Origin: Octopus vulgaris
Taxonomy: Eukaryota
Direction of reading: 5' to 3'
NCBI GenBank assembly: GCA_951406725.2
Contig: OX597820.1
Coordinates: forward strand, 48,422,001 to 48,486,000
Length of the DNA stretch: 64,000 bases
The position numbers and the translations under genes were made by a program. Position 1 is the stretch's first letter; each line of letters starts with the position of its first letter. Below, in pieces: positions 18,030 through 61,403 of the stretch. The notes under the pieces are model-generated. The model was not told where the DNA came from. It saw only the letters and a list, made by a program, of their open reading frames with translations, and did no database searches.

Positions 18030-19440
18030 AGTAGTAACAGAAAGGAGGAATTTCGATTATCCCCACGTGGTGAGTTGTAATATATATAAGAAATTAAAGA
18101 AGGAAAATATGCATATTTCGCATAGTTTTAATATAATTTTTAATATATCAACCGGTTTCGCTCTCGCTATTCATGATATTATGTTTTACTTATTTGAATA
18201 TGATATTTACGAGTGAATTACTTTACAAGTAGAAAAATAAAGGGAGGTAATTGGTTATCATTATTATTGTTATTCTTGTGGACATGGGAGATAACTGTTC
18301 AGCTTTCGGTAAGGGGAGGAGAATATCTATGTACAGACAAAAAAGAAGGTTTCGAAAAACTTGTTTAGTGAGGGGATTTGTGTACAGTGATATAATCGTG
18401 AATTGAAATATGTAAAAAGAAAAAAAGTTGGTTATGCATGCATATTATGACGTGTTCTGTATTTTTAAATCTAAAAAAGTTTATTTAAACGTTCTTGTGG
18501 AGAGATTGTATCTTTGCACTGGTAGAAGGGGAAAACTGTGTAATTTGGTTTGATGTTATCTGCACATTTTTGTATATGTTCACTGAGAGGAAATTTCCTG
18601 TTTTGCGGGAAACGGATTTTACTCTTTCTGTAGAGTGGTTCTCGCAACCTGAGCAGGTTATTACATAAATTAGGTTCTCAGAGGCACAAGTGAAACCAGC
18701 TTTAATTGTGAACCTCTGCCCTTGTTTGAAAAGGAAATCCGAGCCTTCAAGTAGGTTGGGGCAGGTTCCACAGTTTGGTTGTTTGTAAAGCTTCGCATTT
18801 GTTAGCAGTATCTTTAGCGATTTGTCTTGTTTTTGTATTTGAGGAGTTTGTGTGTTTTCAAGATATCGTTCATTTTTCGATCTCTAGTTAGTAAAGGAGG
18901 ATTTTTCACAATAGTGTTGAATGCCTCACTGTTTCTAAGGTTGGGTGTTGATATAAATAGTAATGTTTTGAGATGAGATGTGGTGCTAAGTTTTGTTGTT
19001 CTTAGTATTTTTATGTCTAATTGTTTGGCACGTTTAATTTTCTCGTCGATAAATGAGGGTGAATATTGTCTTTCTATTAGCGTTGATTTGAGGTCTTGAA
19101 GACGAAAGTCCCGAGTTGTTCTATCAGATACTATTGTGCAAATCCTTTTTGCCAAATTGAAAGGGATATTTATTTTGATGTGTTTCGGATGGGATCAGTT
19201 AAAGAGGAGATATTGTTTTGAATCAGTTGGTTTATAATAGATGTTAGTTATGATTTGATTGTTGACTTTTTTATCATGATGTCTAAAAATTGGAGTTGTT
19301 CTTTGTTATATTCCACTGTGAATTGAATGTTACTTTTTATATCATTTAGTGTTGATTAGAAATCCAAAAGTTTGTCAATGTTCACCTTCCAAATGATAAA
19401 ACAGTCATCCAAGTATCTCTTCCAATTTTCTCTAATGTAG
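18030..19440 (-). mobile_element. 5'-truncated Penelope-like element (RT C-terminus, GIY-YIG, 3' pLTR region)
   Basis: Minus strand reads RENWKRYLDDCFIIW (~19430), YYKPTDSKQYL..HPKHIKINIPFNLAKRICTIVSD, FTCASENLIYVITCSGC (~18670), LSEHIQKCA..FPFYQC. Confidence 0.9.
18145..18179 (-). ncRNA. Minimal type I hammerhead ribozyme-like motif, A3-U8 core variant
   Basis: AUAUC-AUGAAUA-GC GAGA GC-GAAA-CCGG-UU-GAUAU: helix I, core, helix II with GNRA loop, GAAA, palindromic helix III, UH site. About 300 nt downstream of the PLE ORF end, same strand. Confidence 0.65.
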
Positions 19441-26129: not shown

Positions 26130-29110
26130 TCGAGTACCAGATTAGCTTCGCAATTTCGACGAAGGAGAACCAGAGGAGGAAACAAACACTTCGATGGGAG
26201 CTTACTTTGACAAAATTCAGGCCTGACATCTCCATCACTCTGTGTAAACAATCCCATTACAAAGCCAAATGCGAAAATATCGATGGTCAAATTGGAGACG
26301 AAATATCAAAACAAACGACTGGCAATATAGCAGAACAAATGCGAAAACTATGATATCCCAAAAGACAAAAGCAGATCAAGAAAGTTATAGCAACAGAAAC
26401 AACTATTTCTCAACAAATATGCTGCAAATTTTGGTAAAGACTCTAGGACCCTAAGTAATAGCATTGAAAGTGGACAATCCCACCAACGTAACAATCGCCA
26501 GATCCCGTGGCAACATGAACACTCGTTTCACCATAAATTGATGATTTAATACGGCAAGAACTCTTCTCTTTTTTGTACTCAAACACACTAATGCAGACAA
26601 TATGAACAAAAATCACAAACAAGATAGATATACCTCTGGTCAGGCCATTAGGAATAGAAATAATAGATAATTTTCAAGGGCTCAATAGAGATTACCTACA
26701 AGATACTGCGCAAAAATCCGATCTAGATCTGGAAGTAAACCTAGATCATTTCCTATGTTGTTAAAACAATACTAACAAGAAATTGAAAAATAACATAATA
26801 CCAAAAACAGGACAGAAAACACAACGAAACAAATTGAAATACCACAAACAAAACACGAAGTCCATGAAATAAGCATCAACAGGCATAAAAATCATAAACA
26901 GAGAATAATCCATTTTTTAACGTCGGACAACAAACATCGCAGAAAGAAAAAATCCAAGATGTAACATATCTAAAACCACTAAACGTATTGATCCTAAAAT
27001 AATTAAGTTATCCAAAAGAGATCTTAACAATGATGAATTCCAACTTCTGTCGAACTTCAATATCCTTCTGCTCAACCTACACCAATAGTCAACCACCAAG
27101 AACTAAAAGAGGATATCTACACATTGTCGTAGGTTACTAATAAAAGTAATGAGATTGATGAACCCCTAGTAAGAAAATAGATCGAACTTCACCCCATCAA
27201 AAAGGAGGAATAACTATCTTGACCAATACATTGATATGCTGTCTAAATTTCCCCTTAGACGCAACACTAATGTTTGGCGAAACATTAACAAATCGGAGAC
27301 GTCTGTACTTAAACGTATGCAAAACGATCAGACAATGATAATTAAAAAGCAGATAAAGGGAGTGCAATTGTTATTATGGCCGCCGAATACTACAAGGATT
27401 TGGCTGAGGATCAACTGCAGGACACAACCTGTCGTGAAATAACTTCAAATATAGACCGCTACATCAGGAAGAATATCAACAACCTGGTGTCAAAACGCAA
27501 CTTACTGATAATGAAAAAGAGTACATCACCAATTTCGTACCAAAACGCAGCAACTTCTACGGTTTACCAAAAATAGATAAGTCAAAAGATATTCAACATG
27601 CAGTAAAAGAACAAGAAAGAGAGTACATACACTTACTATATCCAAAAGACTTAAAACTTAGATCTATTATAGATGGTCCAGCATGCCCTACCCATCGCCT
27701 AAGCAATTTTATTGACATAGTTTTGAAGCCACTATGTATCTACATACCTAGTTTCATCCGGGATCACATCGACTTTTTTTCCTTAAACGAATTCACTTTT
27801 ACTTAGTTTTGATGTGGAAAGCCTTTGCACCAACATTCCACATGATTAAGGAACAAAGACGATTAAATACTGGGAAGAAAACATGATTCCCATCAAATTC
27901 ACAGTGCAATCTATATTGTACATAGTTAGACCTATACTGGAAAACAACCCATTCTTTTTCAATGGAAAGATTTACATCCAAATTAAAGGCACGGCGATGT
28001 GAACGAGATTTGCTCCCGTTAACGCGCACTCTGTAATGTGATACTTGGAACAACAACTCTACCAAAAAGTAGAGGAAAGCTATAGCACTATATTTAGAAA
28101 GTATATTGAAAAGGCATGGAAAAGATACCTTGACGACTGCTTCATAATCTGAACAGAATCTCTAAATACTCTGGAAGAGTTCAATATCCTCTTGGACAAA
28201 CTACACTCATCTCTACAATTTACAAGAGTGATCAGTAGTAACAAATTACCATTCTTTACCAAAAATATATACTATGAACACACGGATACTCATCAATACA
28301 GGAAATTTAAGTCGTGCCATCCACCACATACAAAACGCAAGATCCCATATTTCCTAATCAGAAGAATATGTACCATTGTAGTAGATACGAATATAAGGAA
28401 CAAACGCCAAACAGAAGTAAGAGGAATTTTGCTCAAACAAAAATACCCGTCTCTACTTATAGACAATGGCAGACAGCGGCTTATAAAAATACCCATATAA
28501 CAAATGAGGACAACCTACAGAAGAAGGAAACAAGAACAAGTCATACCATTTATAGTAACACACAGCCCATGTCACCAGAATATCTTCAACATTGCTAAAG
28601 CAAATATACCAATCATTGATCAAAGTAATGAATTAAAAGATATAATCACGGATCGAGATGTGGTTCTTACTAAAAGACAGCATAAAAACTTGTACAAAAT
28701 TATTAACAAAGGCAAAGTTTGATCTTAGCAACGAAGACCAATCATTCACTGTATCTAAATGCAATGATAGCCGAGTGGCACATGCCAGTTCATACATACG
28801 GGCCAATATATGAACACAAAAGCCGGAAAAATATTCACGAACGCAAATATGAACTGCAAAAGCAGAAATTTAATTTACTGCATCAAATACCCAAATTGTG
28901 AAGATCAATATGTGGGTCAGACTGTACTATCAGAACCTTTACATGTGCAAATTAGAAACCCAGAACTCCGTCAGTTACTCTTGAACAACATGTGGTCGCA
29001 AAATATTTATAAGTTTTCCATTCCACAAACTACACAGTACAAATGAAATCTAGAGAAAAATCAGAGAAAAGAACTTTATTAATAAATTCCAACTCAAGCT
29101 AAATAAACAA
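26130..29110 (+). mobile_element. Decayed Penelope-like retroelement (RT + GIY-YIG), many stops and frameshifts
   Basis: In order: KLSKRDLNNDEFQLL (~27000), ADKGSAIVIM (~27350), FYGLPKI, SFDVESLCTNIP, QIKGTAM, WKRYLDDCFII (~28120), SCHPPHTKRKIP..RRICTIV, GIY-YIG NLIYCIKYPNCEDQYVGQT (~28870). The 5' boundary is approximate. Confidence 0.9.
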
Positions 29111-34481: not shown

Positions 34482-34531
<50 letters not shown>

Positions 34532-34532
34532 G

Positions 34533-35110
34533 CAAATCCGACACCCACAATACAGACAGTTAAAGGTGAGTGAACACATAGAAAGGTGTGCCAGGAATCT
34601 TAATCCCAATTTCCAAAACTTCCCCTTCTATCAATGTTCACAGAACACCACAATGCAACAAAGGTTGAATAAAGAGGCATTTTTCATCAATAAATATCTC
34701 CCCCAACTAAATATGAACACACAACTCAATACAGAACACCACTAACCCTTCAATTTAAACAACTAGCCCCTATACACTCCCTACACCATTCACATTTCTA
34801 AATCCAGAACTACTTACTCCCTTACAAATAATCTTTTTTTTCTTAGGAACTATTAGACTTGACACCGTGTATTAGACGGTGTATACAAAGCAATGAATAG
34901 CTTTGCGGAAACCATGGTATGCTTTGTTTTCTGACGTTATAATCATCTCATAATAATGACTTTTATTACTACCTCAGTCCATCTAAATGTATATATTTGT
35001 CGTTACCTTTCATAAAAAGCCTTTTTTTATTTACAATGTGAATTTTCGTTGATTTTTCATATTTTACCCTTACATTTCCACGTGTAGTTTATATTTTCTT
35101 TTTCAAACAT
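34533..35110 (+). mobile_element. 3' fragment of a Penelope-like element (GIY-YIG C-terminus plus pLTR region)
   Basis: 34533-34715 reads QIRHPQYRQLKVSEHIERCARNLNPNFQNFPFYQCSQNTTMQQRLNKEAFFINKYLPQLN, homologous to the C-terminus of the 18030-19440 element. Confidence 0.8.
34885..34927 (+). ncRNA. Minimal type I hammerhead ribozyme-like motif, A3-U8 core variant
   Basis: ACAAAGCA-AUGAAUA-GC UUU GC-G-GAAA-CCAUGG-UA-UGCUUUGU: 8-bp helix I, palindromic helix III, GUA site, one extra G before GAAA. About 170 nt after the PLE GIY-YIG end. Confidence 0.62.
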
Positions 35111-35147: not shown

Positions 35148-35443
35148 GGGGTGCAATGGCCCAGTGGTTAGGGCAGCGGTCTCGCGGTTTCGATTCCCAG
35201 ACAGGGCGTTGTGAGTTTTTATTGAGCGAAAACACCTAAATCTCCACGAGGCTCCGGCAGGGGATGGTGGCGATCCCTGCTGTACTCTTTCGACACAACG
35301 TCTCTCACTTTTTTCTTTTCTTGGCCTGCTCGCCTAGCCAGCGGGGTGGCGTCATTTGAAGCCTAAAACAATGCGAAGCGCATTGTGACCAGCGATATGT
35401 AGCAACATCTGATAGCCAGGTCTGCCACGGTGATCACGGTGAT
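35148..35443 (+). mobile_element. tRNA-derived SINE, second family
   Basis: A box TGGCCCAGTGG, B box TTTCGATTCC. The 3' part matches 24663-24780 in reverse. Flanked by TA tracts. Confidence 0.75.
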
Positions 35444-36112: not shown

Positions 36113-39100
36113 CTAGCAGCATAGCCCGGCGTTGCCCGGGTATGTAAGAGCCCCTAGTAGGCAACGACTAATCCCAATGTAGTCCTTTCTCTCCAGGGAA
36201 CGAAGGTGCATGTGGACGTTGCAATGTCTTGTCTTCACTGGAATACTTCTGTATATACGGTGTTCCTAGCTGTCCGTTTGGGCGAAAACATGAAAACATC
36301 ATTGCGCCTCCCAACGCGTGAACAGCCCACGTAGAGTTGACCGTGGGCGAAGCACTGTTCGCCCAAATGTAACCCAGCGACTTGTAGCGTTTGGCCTTGG
36401 GATTTATTGATGGACATTGCGAAGCAGAGTTTAACAGGAAACTGAGAACGCCTGAAGTGGATTGGTAGGTCAGCGCCCGACGGTTGAAGGTGCATCCGTG
36501 GAATGAAGACGTCCTCTCCCTTCCCACAACCGGTAAGTATTGTGGCCGTTATTAAATGTGGTGCCAAATGTTTCACAACCAAACGTGTGCCGTTGCACTG
36601 TTTAGGTGGAACCAAATTCCTGATGAGCATAATGGGCGCACCGACTTTTAACTTCAGGATGTGTGGTGGCAGGCCTGGCGGTTCAAGTGAATTCAGGAAT
36701 TCAACAGGATAATCGGCAAGCTGGGCGGGGTCTGCTGTCCTATCTATAGATTTGTAGATGTGGACATCACCAGGAATAGCTTCAAGTAGCTGGATATTGA
36801 TGGAGTTGACGGTTGTATTTTTGGGTGCGAGAATAGCTCTGCCTGCCAGCCATTTTAGGTCGCGTAAATTGTTTTGTAGGTCGTGGAAGACAGCGTCCCG
36901 GAGGCTAGCAGGGGTGTCGACAATGGTGCAAAGTGAGTCCAATTGAACGTAGCCATCCGCATCAGACAGCATCCTATTTTCACCGAGCGATAAGAGGTCC
37001 CTGGAGAATGCAGCAGATCCGCTGTCACCAATTAACTGCGCGCGCATGTTAGTTTGGAGGTGCAAGAGCCGCACATGTGCCCAAAGAGCTGACGACTTAA
37101 GGCACGCGCGCACGGCATCGGCACGGGTTCCTTTTGGAATAACAGGTAGAGTCTGCCTGAAGTCTCCTGAAAGAAGTAAAGTTAATCCTCCCATGGGGGC
37201 CGTAGAGTCTCTGATGTCTTGCAGGGACCTGTCCAGTGCCTCAAGGGCGCCTTTGTGTGCCATAGTGCACTCGTCCCATACGATGAGTTTGCATCTGCGC
37301 AGAATGTCGGCCTGTTCTGAGTTCTTGGCGATGTTGCAGATAGGTGACTCGGACTTTGCCAGATCGAGCGGGAGTCTGAAGGCAGAGTGGGCGGTTCTGC
37401 CACCCGGAAGCAACGTGGCCGCGATACCAGAGGAAGCTACAGCCAGGGCAATGTCCGTGTTGCGTCTGACCTCTGCCAGAATTAGTTTAGTGACGAAGGT
37501 TTTGCCAGTGCCGCCGGGTGCATCAAGGAAGAAAATCCCCCCACGTTGCTGTCTGACAGAGTCTACGATGGTGTTGTAGGCTATGCGCTGGTCTGGAAGC
37601 AGCCGTGGTTCATTATCTTGGACGTACTGGTGCAGTTCCTCAATGCAGTAGGAAGTTTCGCGTAACAATTCAGCAGACATAACATTGGCGTGTTCACGTG
37701 TGGGTGGTGGAAGGCCGTACTCTGTTAAAGCAGACCCACCCATATCGATGACAGCGTCTTCGAGTTGAATGAGCGCAAAATTGTAAATGAAGTTGGTGAA
37801 CGTGATCTCGGCGGAAGGGCAGTGTTGCTGAGCCGTACGTAAGAAGTCGTGCGACATGTCATCCCTGTATTTCATCCAGAGACTTAGTGGATCACTAAGC
37901 TGACATTTTTGAAGAAGGATTGCGAAAAGATGTCGTAGGGCCGAATGCGTTTGCAGTAAAGCACCCTCTGCCATCGTGGCGTCCCACTGGGAGTCATCCT
38001 CTAGAAGGCCAAGTCTCATACATGCTTCCCTGAAGGTGTCTCACAGAACCCCATTGACGGTACGTATATTGGCGAAACCTGTTGGACCAGTGACCTCATG
38101 TAGAAGGAGACGGAGGTAGAAGCATTCTTGCTTGTTTGGCGGGATGTTGTAAACTCGACCCAGGCAGGAGTCAAACTTGACGCCTGGGAAGCTTTCGACG
38201 TTTTTGCCGGATTTCCGTCGAACCCAGGTGTTTTTAGACCACACGAAGTACGATGGGACCTGTGGGTACAAAAGCGTTCGAGCGAAGTCATCACGTTGGC
38301 ATAATTTGAAGAAACCAGTCAACGTTGTGTCTTTAGGGCTGGTGGCTATCTGCACAGCACTTTGCTCTGTGAAGTAAATCCGCTGTCCATTTTCCAAGTG
38401 TACAGCAAGCTGCACCACAGCCGGGTGTCTCTGATGGAGCGGGAAGCCGTAAATGCGCCAAAACGCTTCGTTGCTGCTGAGGTACCGGCCAGCCAAGTAG
38501 TTGGACACTTCGTCGCGACTGGTGGTCCTCTGGATGCTGAACATGGCAGCATCGCTGCCTTTGTTGATATATTTGCAGACATATTGTATTGACCTGATGG
38601 AGCTGCAGAACTCAACGTTGACGTGGGCTTTGAATATCTTCGACAGGAGAGGACAGTAGAGGACAATGTAGCTGTTGTCCACTTGATGTCGCCCAACCGT
38701 AATCGTGCGGCCTCCATTGGCTGGACTCCTTCGTTTGTACAGCGGATACCCATCGCCGCCTGTTTGAGTCTCCAAAGTGAACCGTTTAGGGAATCCCTTT
38801 GAGCAGGCTAATCCGTTTTTGTAGCATGGTGTGTTGGCGTAATTTGGTCCACAGGGCCCGTGTACCATGGTAGTGCGGACAATTTCGTAGAGTCCGGGGT
38901 CCTCATCGGGGTCAGGAATCTCGGTGGAAATGAATTTGTCAATGTCATTAGTCTCGATTTTATGAGTGAGCCAAATTAAGATGTGAGCATGTGGCAAGCC
39001 CCTCTTTTGCCACTCGACTGAAAACATGTGGCACCTGACATGCCCTAAAATCTGACCCTTAACTATCAAATCCTTCATTTTGCCCAAATTCAGACGGAAA

Positions 39101-42100
39101 ACCCTAGCAACGATGTCGTGTCGATGGGTGTGAGATTGACCCGGGAGGAGTTCGCGAGTGATTTCGTCGCAGCTGGGATTGCACGTGTAGGTGATAAAGA
39201 GGTCCGGCCGGCCGTAAATGCGCACGTAGGTCAAGGCGTCTTGGGTCCTTTCACGCATATATCGCGGTCCTCCCGTGAAGGTGGAGGGTAGAATGCATGG
39301 CTTGCCGATGTTGCGAGGGTCATTTTCTTGTTGCAAACCGTCACGGATATGAATGTAGGAGTCGGAGCGAAGTTTGGTCTGATTAAGTTTAATGTATAGC
39401 AGCCTTTCCGATTCCATTTTTGCGGCCATGTCGACGGCGAACTGGTTGAATAGCTGACGACAACGGGGTAATAAGTTGAACTCACCCTCCCTGACCATGA
39501 ACCGGTATGAGTAGAACGCCCTGCAGGAAACCGTCTTTGATGCCGCAGTAGTTTGATTGGAGGGCTGCCGTAAAGGAATTCCGAAATGGTAGCCGTCTTC
39601 CCCATAAGGGAAAAGCAATGGATACTGAAGCGCGTCATAAGATCTGTGAGTCTCGCTGATCCTGTGTAGGTTGTTACCACGGGAGGAGATGATTATGTCA
39701 CGGCTGTTGTGTTGCTCTCCGTGTATGACTGCGGCAATTTCGTTGCACGCAGGTGCGTTGAAACGGCGTTCGTGCTCCCCGTGGGGTCGTTTATCAGCAT
39801 CAATGACAACGGTGAAGTTTGGAGATGGAGCACTGTCCAAGGCATATCTGAAGCTGCAGACATAGCTGTTGATATCATGAAGCATGGTTTGGAGATGGAG
39901 AAGAATGTCTTTGCGGGGAACATAGCTTGTACCCGGTATTATTCCAAGGCGTGCATCAACCTGGTGGTTGTAGTCGGTAATGAAGTATATTTGGAGGAAA
40001 GAAGACTGCTGAATCTCGTCTGGCAGAAGTGACCCAATAAGATGGTAGACCTGTCCCTGCACTTTGAAAGTAGGCATCCAGCCTTCTCTGGGAGGAATTT
40101 TGGCCCCGAAAGAGGTCATTTGGAATGAGCAGTTGTACTTTCGAATTATTTCAAGGAATTGTGACGAATCGGGGGTTAAACCCGCCGCGAGATCCTTCAG
40201 TGGTTGAGGTGGTTCCCGTAGGGGTGGCAGGTCCACTTTGCCACCAGAGCAGCACAAACCAGGTGGCTCTCCGGGCCATTTCTTGGCTTTGCAAAACTGG
40301 CATACAATTGTCATTGACCCTATCTTGATGTCGTCACGCAAGGAGAAGTTAATTGTGGCGTCGTAGTTGAATGCTAGTGACAACCAGAAAGCGGGGGCAG
40401 GGGTACGTACACCACGAATGATATCCCGACGTTTGTTGATACTCTCAAGTCGAGTGCACCGTGCCTCAGCAGATTCAGATGCACGTGCGACAGCGGCAGC
40501 AGTGGCATCCCTTGAAAGCCTTTCAGCTCTCGCCTCAGCACCCTCTGAAGCCCTAGCAGAAGCAGTGTTAATGGCATGTCTGGATGTCCGAATAGTCCGT
40601 TGGTGTGGAGTTTCGGCAGATCGAGCCCTGGCTGTGTTTGCGGCGTTAGCAGCTTGGCGAGTTCTCCTCTGTTGAGGTGTTTCGGCAGCTTTGGCCATGG
40701 CATTGTTTGCGGCGTCAGCATCTTGGCGAGTTCTCCTCTGCTGTGAGGTTTCGACAGATCGTGTCCTGGCGGTGCTAGTGGCGTTAGCCACATTCCGAAT
40801 GGCCCTTTGTTCGGGGTTCTCGCGAGCTCTGCGGATGGAAGCACAGTAAGAAGCCCGCATATTTTGGCTGGACTGTTGCTCTTTCGTCAACCTCGAGCGG
40901 AGGGAAGATCTGTACGCTGCGACCCTTGCAAGTCGGGTAGAACGGTCGCTAATAGTTTCAGATGCCTGAGCAGCGGCATAACGGGAAGCTGTTTGCGAGA
41001 GGCGCAAGGCGGTTTCCTCGTGGGTCTCGCGTGCCCTTCTAGCTCTAGCAGCCGATGCCTTGGCCGTCCGAGGGCTGAGGAGGGTCCTTCTCTTCTTGGG
41101 TGGCATTTTGGTGGATAGCAATGTGTTTGGCAAAGGTGTAATAAAAAGGAACACGTGGGGTAAGTATTTTGGTGGATAGCAATGTGTTTGGTAAAGGTGT
41201 AATAAAAAGGAACACGTGGGGTAAGTATCCGAAAATGTATAAAAATGTACAAAAATGGCCAAAAAGCTGGCAGCAATGTGAGTGACAACAACGAAAAAGT
41301 CAAAAGTGATCAAACTGAACAAACGAAAGGAAAAGTTTTTTGATGCACACGACAAAAGTGGTTTATAATAAACCAAGAGTTTGCAAGTAGCGTCCAAGGA
41401 CCGTTAGGGTACGTAAAAAATTGAAGGTAAAACGTTTGGGGTGGTAGTTATAAAGAAAGTTTAAACAAAAAAAGTATTCGAATAACTTGCGGCTGCAGCA
41501 GCTATTAGCAGAAGTGGCGGTGTTGGGGGTAAAGTCTCGAACGTAATTTCTTCCTGGTAGGAATTGGTTGGATCGAATTATCGATAGCTAAAAAGGTCAA
41601 GTTGCGTCCCCTAGACAGTCTGGTTTGTGTTTAATACACAAATTTGTTTGCTATGTGTGCCACATATGATTAAATTAACCGATTTTTTCCAATAATGTAT
41701 CCTATTGGAATAAAAAGGGCTATATAGCTCCTTGGAGCAGACATGATGCTCGTTGTAAAAAAAAAAAAGATTCCTGCCAATTTGTGAAAGATATTGTCGA
41801 AAATATGTCATGTTGAATTTGAACGCGATTTCCCAAAATGGCATGATTTTATCGATTGTTTCTGATGGTAAGGTATTGCATGGAAAACTAACGTCAGAAT
41901 TGAGTTTCTTAGGGTAACATTAAGCTTCACCATGAGTTTGGTGAAAATCGATTGCAAGTTGTGAAAACTACCATAGATAATGCGTTGCATAAAAAAGCTT
42001 AGATTCTCGAGTTGCGTCCCCTAGACAGTCTGTGGTTCATGTTTATGATTGTCGACCCCATGTCGAATTTATCAATTTTTTTCAGAACTGGGGGAACTTT

Positions 42101-60996: not shown

Positions 60997-61403
<407 letters not shown>

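Follow-up and report, generated by a model that had tools for sequence, protein, structure and literature searches.

A hammerhead motif with an A3-U8 pair in a truncated Penelope-like element of Octopus vulgaris, and natural variation of the 3-8 pair among its relatives

The 64,000-nucleotide stretch of the Octopus vulgaris genome analysed here (the window, to which all positions refer) contains a 5'-truncated, solitary Penelope-like element (PLE), consisting of the end of an open reading frame and a 3' pLTR. It extends on the forward strand from 34531 to about 35119, between a (GT)n and an (AT)n tract. For 24 of the 29 family loci, homology to the window begins at 34531, and copies of the element terminate in ATTTCTACT, followed by (AT)n. 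In a search of 2.8 Gb of genome sequence, for which 40 of 2,592 candidates were scored, family copies were 82-91% identical. Many copies lie close together in inverted pairs, as is usual for PLE insertions (e.g. at loci L009, L015, L055 and L264/L265). The coding remnant (34533..34745, +) comprises the C-terminal 70 codons and the stop of a PLE RT-GIY-YIG ORF and shows 93% identity to amino acids 441-510 of the ORF at locus L015. A second PLE of the window, the 18-kb element, has its ORF remnants at 18480-19439 and belongs to a different family, to which the stretch 34533-34742 is 59% identical (36 of 61 residues). The relationship between the two GIY-YIG C-termini proposed in a first-pass annotation of this DNA is thereby supported.

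In the L015 ORF the GIY-YIG domain scored above its Pfam cut-off and RVT_1 below its own. Homologues of this ORF with both RT and GIY-YIG domains exist, molluscan sequences being among the homologues, and the family has the single RT ORF with C-terminal GIY-YIG and the pLTRs of an EN+ PLE. Direct pLTR-ORF-pLTR repeats with two motifs of the kind described below were found in L387 (3.1 kb apart) and, in another family, L388 (4.0 kb). A CX4CxxC linker, recognised by eye in the family translations, falls within the CX2-5CxxC finger of the Neptune clade, so that the ORF as a whole indicates a Neptune-like PLE. The window copy itself, a solitary stub lacking a promoter, is probably inert. Contigs from sequencing runs of organisms labelled B, C and D show the same family and variants of it, and no relative of the element was found in viral contigs.

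Several other repeats lie in the window. Just past the stub, a dispersed repeat resembling a SINE occupies about 35150-35440; by eye its start is tRNA-like, and similar sequence flanks the copies L264 and L265. Two long in-frame ORFs of 601 and 1120 amino acids, separated by a single stop, occupy 36235-41403 (-); the longer one matches Helitron_like_N (E 1e-50) and contains STPRs repeats, and the element is probably a young Helitron. At 27790-28977 (+) lie the remains of yet another PLE family, the third in the window and more distantly related (36% to the family ORF); a generic scan of the window showed no hammerhead just downstream of it. A canonical minimal hammerhead of the ordinary PLE type has its core start at 61135 (-), its parts being CUGAUGA, a long stem II preceded by an additional A, GAAA-G-U-U and a 5-bp helix I.

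The 3' pLTR of the stub contains, 148 nt past the ORF stop and on the sense strand, as is usual for PLE minimal hammerheads, the motif which is the subject of this report (34885-34927, +; all parts given below are on this strand). The arms of helix I, ACAAAGCA (34885..34892) and UGCUUUGU (34920..34927), form 8 bp with pairing probabilities of 0.7-0.96 when the motif is folded; pair 2.1-1.1 changes from A-U to G-C between subfamilies. The core strand AUGAAUA (34893..34899) supplies A3 (34893), U4, G5, A6, A7, U8 (34898) and A9, and is followed by a 2-bp stem II with G10.1-C11.1, a second C-G pair and a UUU loop (GC-UUU-GC, 34900..34906), whose GC/GC pairs are kept in descendant subfamilies and whose loop changes. 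The strand GGAAA (34907..34911) provides G12, an extra base best read as 12a (G34908), A13, A14 and A15.1; position 34908 varies between G, U, C and A. The palindrome ACCAUGGU (34911..34918) is the predicted intermolecular helix III of a dimer, with a self-duplex energy of -11.2 kcal/mol, and lengthens along the lineage from CCGG over CCAUGG to CCAAUUGG. In the hammerhead numbering, which is well established, as are the roles of G12 and of the position-8 ribose (PMC6155905), cleavage is predicted after A17 (34919..34920, GUA triplet; H17 = A34919). The family pattern has 284 matches (control 0); in the first 100 of these as listed, U, C and A occur at N17 but G does not.

The motif agrees with the hammerhead consensus in U4 G5 A6 N7, A9, A15.1-U16.1 and H17, in the type I arrangement of three helices around the core and in a Watson-Crick tertiary pair 3-8 (A-U in the window copy; four Watson-Crick types and one wobble across families). 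It deviates in having A3 and U8 instead of the literal C3 and G8, and in the interruption of the contiguous G12-A13-A14 right after stem II, which affects the window sub-lineage and is absent from an ancestor-like subfamily and from the family of the 18-kb element (family B). For these two reasons the motif is a variant and not a member of the consensus. Letters, helices and A3-U8 core were all verified as first annotated, and the sequence confirms a type I hammerhead motif that is minimal and of the dimer type and has A3-U8 in place of C3-G8.

The pattern ATGANTAGC-N3-5-GC-N0-1-GAAACC matches exactly two places in the window, compared to 0.00 expected from 100 shuffles. These are the core at 34893 and that of the 18-kb motif, which had been said to have it in common. 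The latter (18145..18179, -, core start 18174) is likewise an A3-U8 hammerhead and otherwise canonical; most copies of family B have C17 (GUC site), the 18-kb copy U17. A generic minimal-hammerhead scan ranked 34893 first and found three motifs in the real window versus one in total in 10 shuffled windows. Rfam covariance models gave no hammerhead match in 34700-35100 at E up to 10 and, over the whole window, microsatellite-driven miRNA hits only among the 150 listed. The folding energy of the motif is ordinary (z -0.39).

Upstream of helix I lies a hairpin with a CACCG/CGGUG stem (34862..34882, +), which is kept along the lineage leading from G3-C8 to A3-U8, with a variable loop and no compensatory change seen in the stem. 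Its presence had been noted correctly; of the seven base pairs ascribed to it, the seventh is private to the window copy, the family having a C at 34876 which leaves about 6 bp.

A3-U8 is the majority state in the window family and in family B (alignments of 30 loci each), and the pattern of the window family, with A3-U8, has 284 matches in the genome and none in the control. Alignments and genome counts support the view that A3-U8 has become fixed in the family and is seemingly selected. A single motif scaffold gave 3,106 exact genome-wide matches (control 0), 1,918 of them U3-A8 and 901 A3-U8. A non-U at both 3 and 8 was present in 62, three being C-G or G-C and 59 scattered mismatches. A further 225 make up the rest, and copies with G8 sampled from the 3,106 matches were U3.G8 in seven of seven cases. 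Families with G3-C8 account for 169 matches versus 50 in the control; a small C3-G8 family also occurs in the genome, with helix I unpaired. Two subfamilies are alike across the whole motif save positions 3 and 8 (GUGAUCA versus AUGAUUA; 146 matches, control 0). A hand tally of the first 100 listed of these gave 79 A-U, 14 G-C, 4 A.C and one each of G.U, C.C and U.C.

In 29 subfamily representatives, hand-chosen after their sequences had been seen, positions 3 and 8 are paired without exception (A-U 12, C-G 8, G-C 5, U-A 3, U-G 1) and U4, G5, A6 and A9 do not change. Unpaired positions 3 and 8 in other clade members, which had been named as an outcome that would refute the first-pass reading, did not come up. 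Helix I of the same representatives shows two-sided change in all five of five pairs, with 93% of cells paired, and the covariation score of 0.719 was not reached in any of 500 shuffles, which ignore relatedness. With the changes of the palindrome along the lineage, this bears out the covariation of helices I and III suggested before.

We also searched related loci in metagenome and MAG contigs (n=126). Of 19 sense-strand motifs that passed the scoring, 17 are C3-G8, one is U.G and one A.C; neither A3-U8 among these 19 nor any antisense motif was found in the 126 loci, and a looser pattern added one motif, with U3-A8 (L149). Fourteen of the outgroup C3-G8 motifs sit 66-482 nt past the ORF match. 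Outgroup PLEs are, by their sequences, mostly C3-G8. Many of the bacterial-MAG and metagenome contigs in question (L131-L256; e.g. Thiodiazotropha, SUP05 and Stappiaceae bins) bear animal-type PLE ORFs, which are probably contamination with host DNA. At the level of sequence, related PLE families carry all four Watson-Crick versions of the 3-8 pair, a natural covariation of the catalytic tertiary pair.

Irregular forms have been amplified, too. These include U.G at 3-8, U.U at 2.1-1.1 in part of the youngest family, and C.A or C.C mismatches inside helix I in older families, so that the constraint looks loose. The youngest PLE family (L105, L116, L118-L121, L129 and related loci), with a median of 3.6% between copies, includes both the U3.G8 wobble subfamily and the U.U mismatch forms at the base of helix I. 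An older G3-C8 hammerhead-like group (L260, L263, L269, L272, L286 and L323, near position 1500) has a GCC/GGC-type stem II, a CUC-A-GAG helix III and no PLE ORF nearby.

Trees of the ORF ends group the window family with the G3-C8 families and apart from the 18-kb family. In topology tests covering 29 of 60 sequences, with 5,000 replicates for the AU test (flagged as few by IQ-TREE), monophyly of A3-U8 was rejected (dlnL 91) and that of G3-C8 was borderline (p-AU 0.0525). A tree of the flanks with the motif masked, built from 30 of 43 parsed copies (13 dropped for short upstream sequence; two more did not parse), is a ladder from G3-C8 over canonical A3-U8 and the window family with its extra base to the descendants of the latter, several internal nodes being weak (26-70). 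About four independent double changes account for all 3-8 states, each yielding a Watson-Crick pair. The first-pass annotation had regarded A3-U8 as a clade-wide variant. This did not hold, since other clade members have U3-A8, U3.G8, G3-C8 or C3-G8 and A3-U8 is not monophyletic; the A3-U8 common to the window and 18-kb elements is probably not one clade-wide trait. As the window lineage groups with G3-C8 and not with the 18-kb family, the 9-nt core common to both most likely reflects convergence or reversal, the most likely course being a change from G-C to A-U in the window lineage, either separate from the A-U of the 18-kb branch or reverting to it. Conversion of the core from family B was considered as well and is unlikely, since the G3-C8 subfamily is matched in helix I, at N17 and in both flanks.

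One extra base at the position of 34908 is present in 32 of 32 aligned family rows, and the CG preceding it is retained in most aligned rows. The extra G had been suspected of inactivating the window copy in particular. Given its presence in the whole family and the continued amplification of descendant subfamilies this no longer applies; the extra base, if inactivating, affects the whole sub-lineage rather than the window copy. Along the ladder the 3' strand passes from GAC-GAAA or GCC-GAAA to GCG-GAAA (window) and on to GCG-UAAA or GCG-AAAA, which suggests that a stem II bulge shifted register, G34907 becoming G12 and G34908 an insertion that drifted later. Natural hammerhead insertions described in the relevant parts of PMC3088659 are A6a, U13a and 2a/2b, none of them after G12.

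Helix III of the window motif cannot close intramolecularly, and its palindrome is predicted to pair as in a double hammerhead. For families B and D, the predicted dimer of lowest energy (MFE) has this fold. In the window copy the double hammerhead (-25.8 kcal/mol) lies 1.2 kcal/mol from the dimer MFE (-27.0 kcal/mol), a rival structure in which the helix I 5' arm pairs with the stem II strand. A few assembled contigs guessed to be RNA span the predicted cleavage site, such contigs being blind to RNA ends and levels.

From the predicted folds and from related systems we consider it rather probable that the motif acts in full-length tandem copies, where palindromes would pair and the element RNA would be cut slowly, probably aided by the element's protein. 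Full-length insertions of the family hold two motifs about 3.1 kb apart in direct repeats. These are predicted to assemble into a double hammerhead whose helices I and III form between molecules. Slow processing of tandem transcripts is likely by analogy with other PLE hammerheads: those treated in PMC4209133 cut weakly as dimers, and the Poseidon hammerhead, according to the portions of PMC11167929 dealing with it, cleaves only with PLE protein and is partly rescued by C3G/G8C, its cleavage being unnecessary for insertion in vitro. In successive master elements the 3-8 pair would have been swapped by compensatory double changes, starting from C-G in outgroups and leading to U-A and U.G in one branch and to G-C and A-U in the other. 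The 18-kb branch would have acquired A-U separately from the change of G-C to A-U in the window lineage, and the register shift of the stem II bulge would have left the old G12 as an insertion after the new one. The solitary, promoterless window stub would itself be inert. The exchange of the 3-8 pair by compensatory changes points to selection on the active site's conformation, and the 3-8 pair belongs to the active conformation according to PMC3884650.

Three other explanations have to be weighed. That the motif is a chance match to a relaxed hammerhead pattern within AT-rich repeat DNA would fit the empty Rfam search and the unremarkable folding z-score. However, canonical hammerheads of related PLEs occupy the same position and strand, the pattern controls are zero and the helices covary, so that a chance match is hardly conceivable and effectively refuted. 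It is also improbable, though less extremely so, that none of the motifs with a swapped core cleaves and that pairing at 3-8 reflects a handful of random fixations carried along by master elements, or a fold without catalytic role. The independent events are indeed few, amplification extended to a wobble subfamily and to forms with helix mismatches, and A3-U8 and U3-A8, when engineered, have low activity in the data of PMC9901934, where a type III hammerhead was mutated at pairs of positions and only the G3-C8 swap rescued activity. Against this, every double change ends on a Watson-Crick pair, mismatches are scattered single copies (the 59 among the 3,106 scaffold matches; six non-pairing rows of the 100 listed for the minimal pair), and the pair concerned is a feature of the active conformation (PMC3884650).

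The alternative to be taken most seriously, although we still regard it as unlikely, concerns the extra base: A3-U8 and G3-C8 would cleave in canonical families, and the extra-base sub-lineage would have lost catalysis and kept its helices for protein binding or dimerisation. In descendant subfamilies the base at the old G12 position has drifted to U, C or A, and GCG-UAAA outnumbers GCG-GAAA by 25 to 5 in a hand tally of the first 50 listed rows. A competing hairpin exists in the predicted fold, derived subfamilies could form an A3-U17 trap pair, and in the experiments of PMC11167929 that bear on this point insertion in vitro did not require the hammerhead. On the other hand, U4-G5-A6, A9, the GC/GC stem, the G after C11.1, AAA, U16.1 and a non-G N17 are retained in several of the later subfamilies, in contrast to loop II, helix I and the palindrome, which change across them, and PMC3088659 regards the adjacent U13a insertion as one that is probably accommodated with ease. 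We thus prefer slow, dimeric and probably protein-aided cleavage of full-length tandem copies.

PMC8557442 suggests, in its remarks on the subject, that hammerheads may simply parasitise PLEs. From an evolutionary standpoint, repeated compensatory change at a pair of the active conformation argues for selection on catalysis, and the presumed self-cutting has likely been kept under selection in these elements. A more far-reaching reading is tentative, and we would give it somewhat less than an even chance: one PLE clade would have passed through all four Watson-Crick pairs at 3-8, arriving at A3-U8 twice, and would then have put up with an insertion behind the general base, every state reaching copy numbers in the hundreds or thousands, with cleavage selected in PLE retrotransposition and dimers and protein rescuing the cores. 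If this were true, cores nearly dead in protein-free assays would be made workable by dimerisation and the element's protein, and searches limited to CUGA or UUGA cores would miss whole ribozyme families. The genome offers a series of natural mutants, among them a pair of motifs distinguished solely by positions 3 and 8, so that the role of PLE hammerheads can be tested with short RNAs. The window copy is probably an ordinary dead stub of a clade whose sequences display complete natural covariation at 3-8.

Compared to known systems, the motif most closely resembles the metazoan PLE minimal hammerheads of PMC4209133, as far as these are characterised in the portions relevant here. It is like them in type I topology, pLTR location, palindromic helix III, G10.1-C11.1, an NUH site and the occurrence mostly as solitary truncated copies. 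It differs from them in A3-U8 (G3-C8 in its ancestral subfamilies), in a 2-bp stem II without the extra base between 9 and 10.1 that accompanies their long stem II, and in the extra base after G12. The same source describes a U3-A8 variant in Cercyon elements of Schistosoma, and the rows covered from the alignment in its supplement (part 2 of 3) have CUGA and UUGA cores only and include no cephalopod. In the literature searched, which had Lünse 2017 and Przybilski & Hammann 2007 outside its scope, there was no report of natural A3-U8 or G3-C8 hammerheads. Natural U3-A8 is already in print (PMC3088659 and PMC4209133, in the passages on core variants) and is the sole natural 3-8 variant found in that literature. 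The variants of Perreault et al. 2011 (PMC3088659) are alike in 3-8 covariation (U3-A8), in an insertion in the GAAA strand (U13a) and in a 2-bp stem II; in the relevant text, unlike in the window clade, neither A3-U8 and G3-C8 pairs nor an insertion following G12 are found among them.

The short-stem-III PLE hammerheads of Lünse, Weinberg & Breaker, as summarised in PMC6765202, are likewise small, associated with PLEs and cleave as dimers. The element itself resembles the Neptune-clade PLEs, as outlined in PMC8557442, in RT, CX4CxxC linker, C-terminal GIY-YIG and (AT)n ends, and is Neptune-like by these features. For engineered exchanges at 3-8, the results given in PMC9901934 and for the PAc Poseidon hammerhead in PMC11167929 show that G3-C8 rescues at least partly. 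Other laboratory double mutants at 3-8 in the portion of PMC9901934 concerned have low activity, whereas A-U and U-A are natural states in the octopus elements and are present there in hundreds to thousands of copies.
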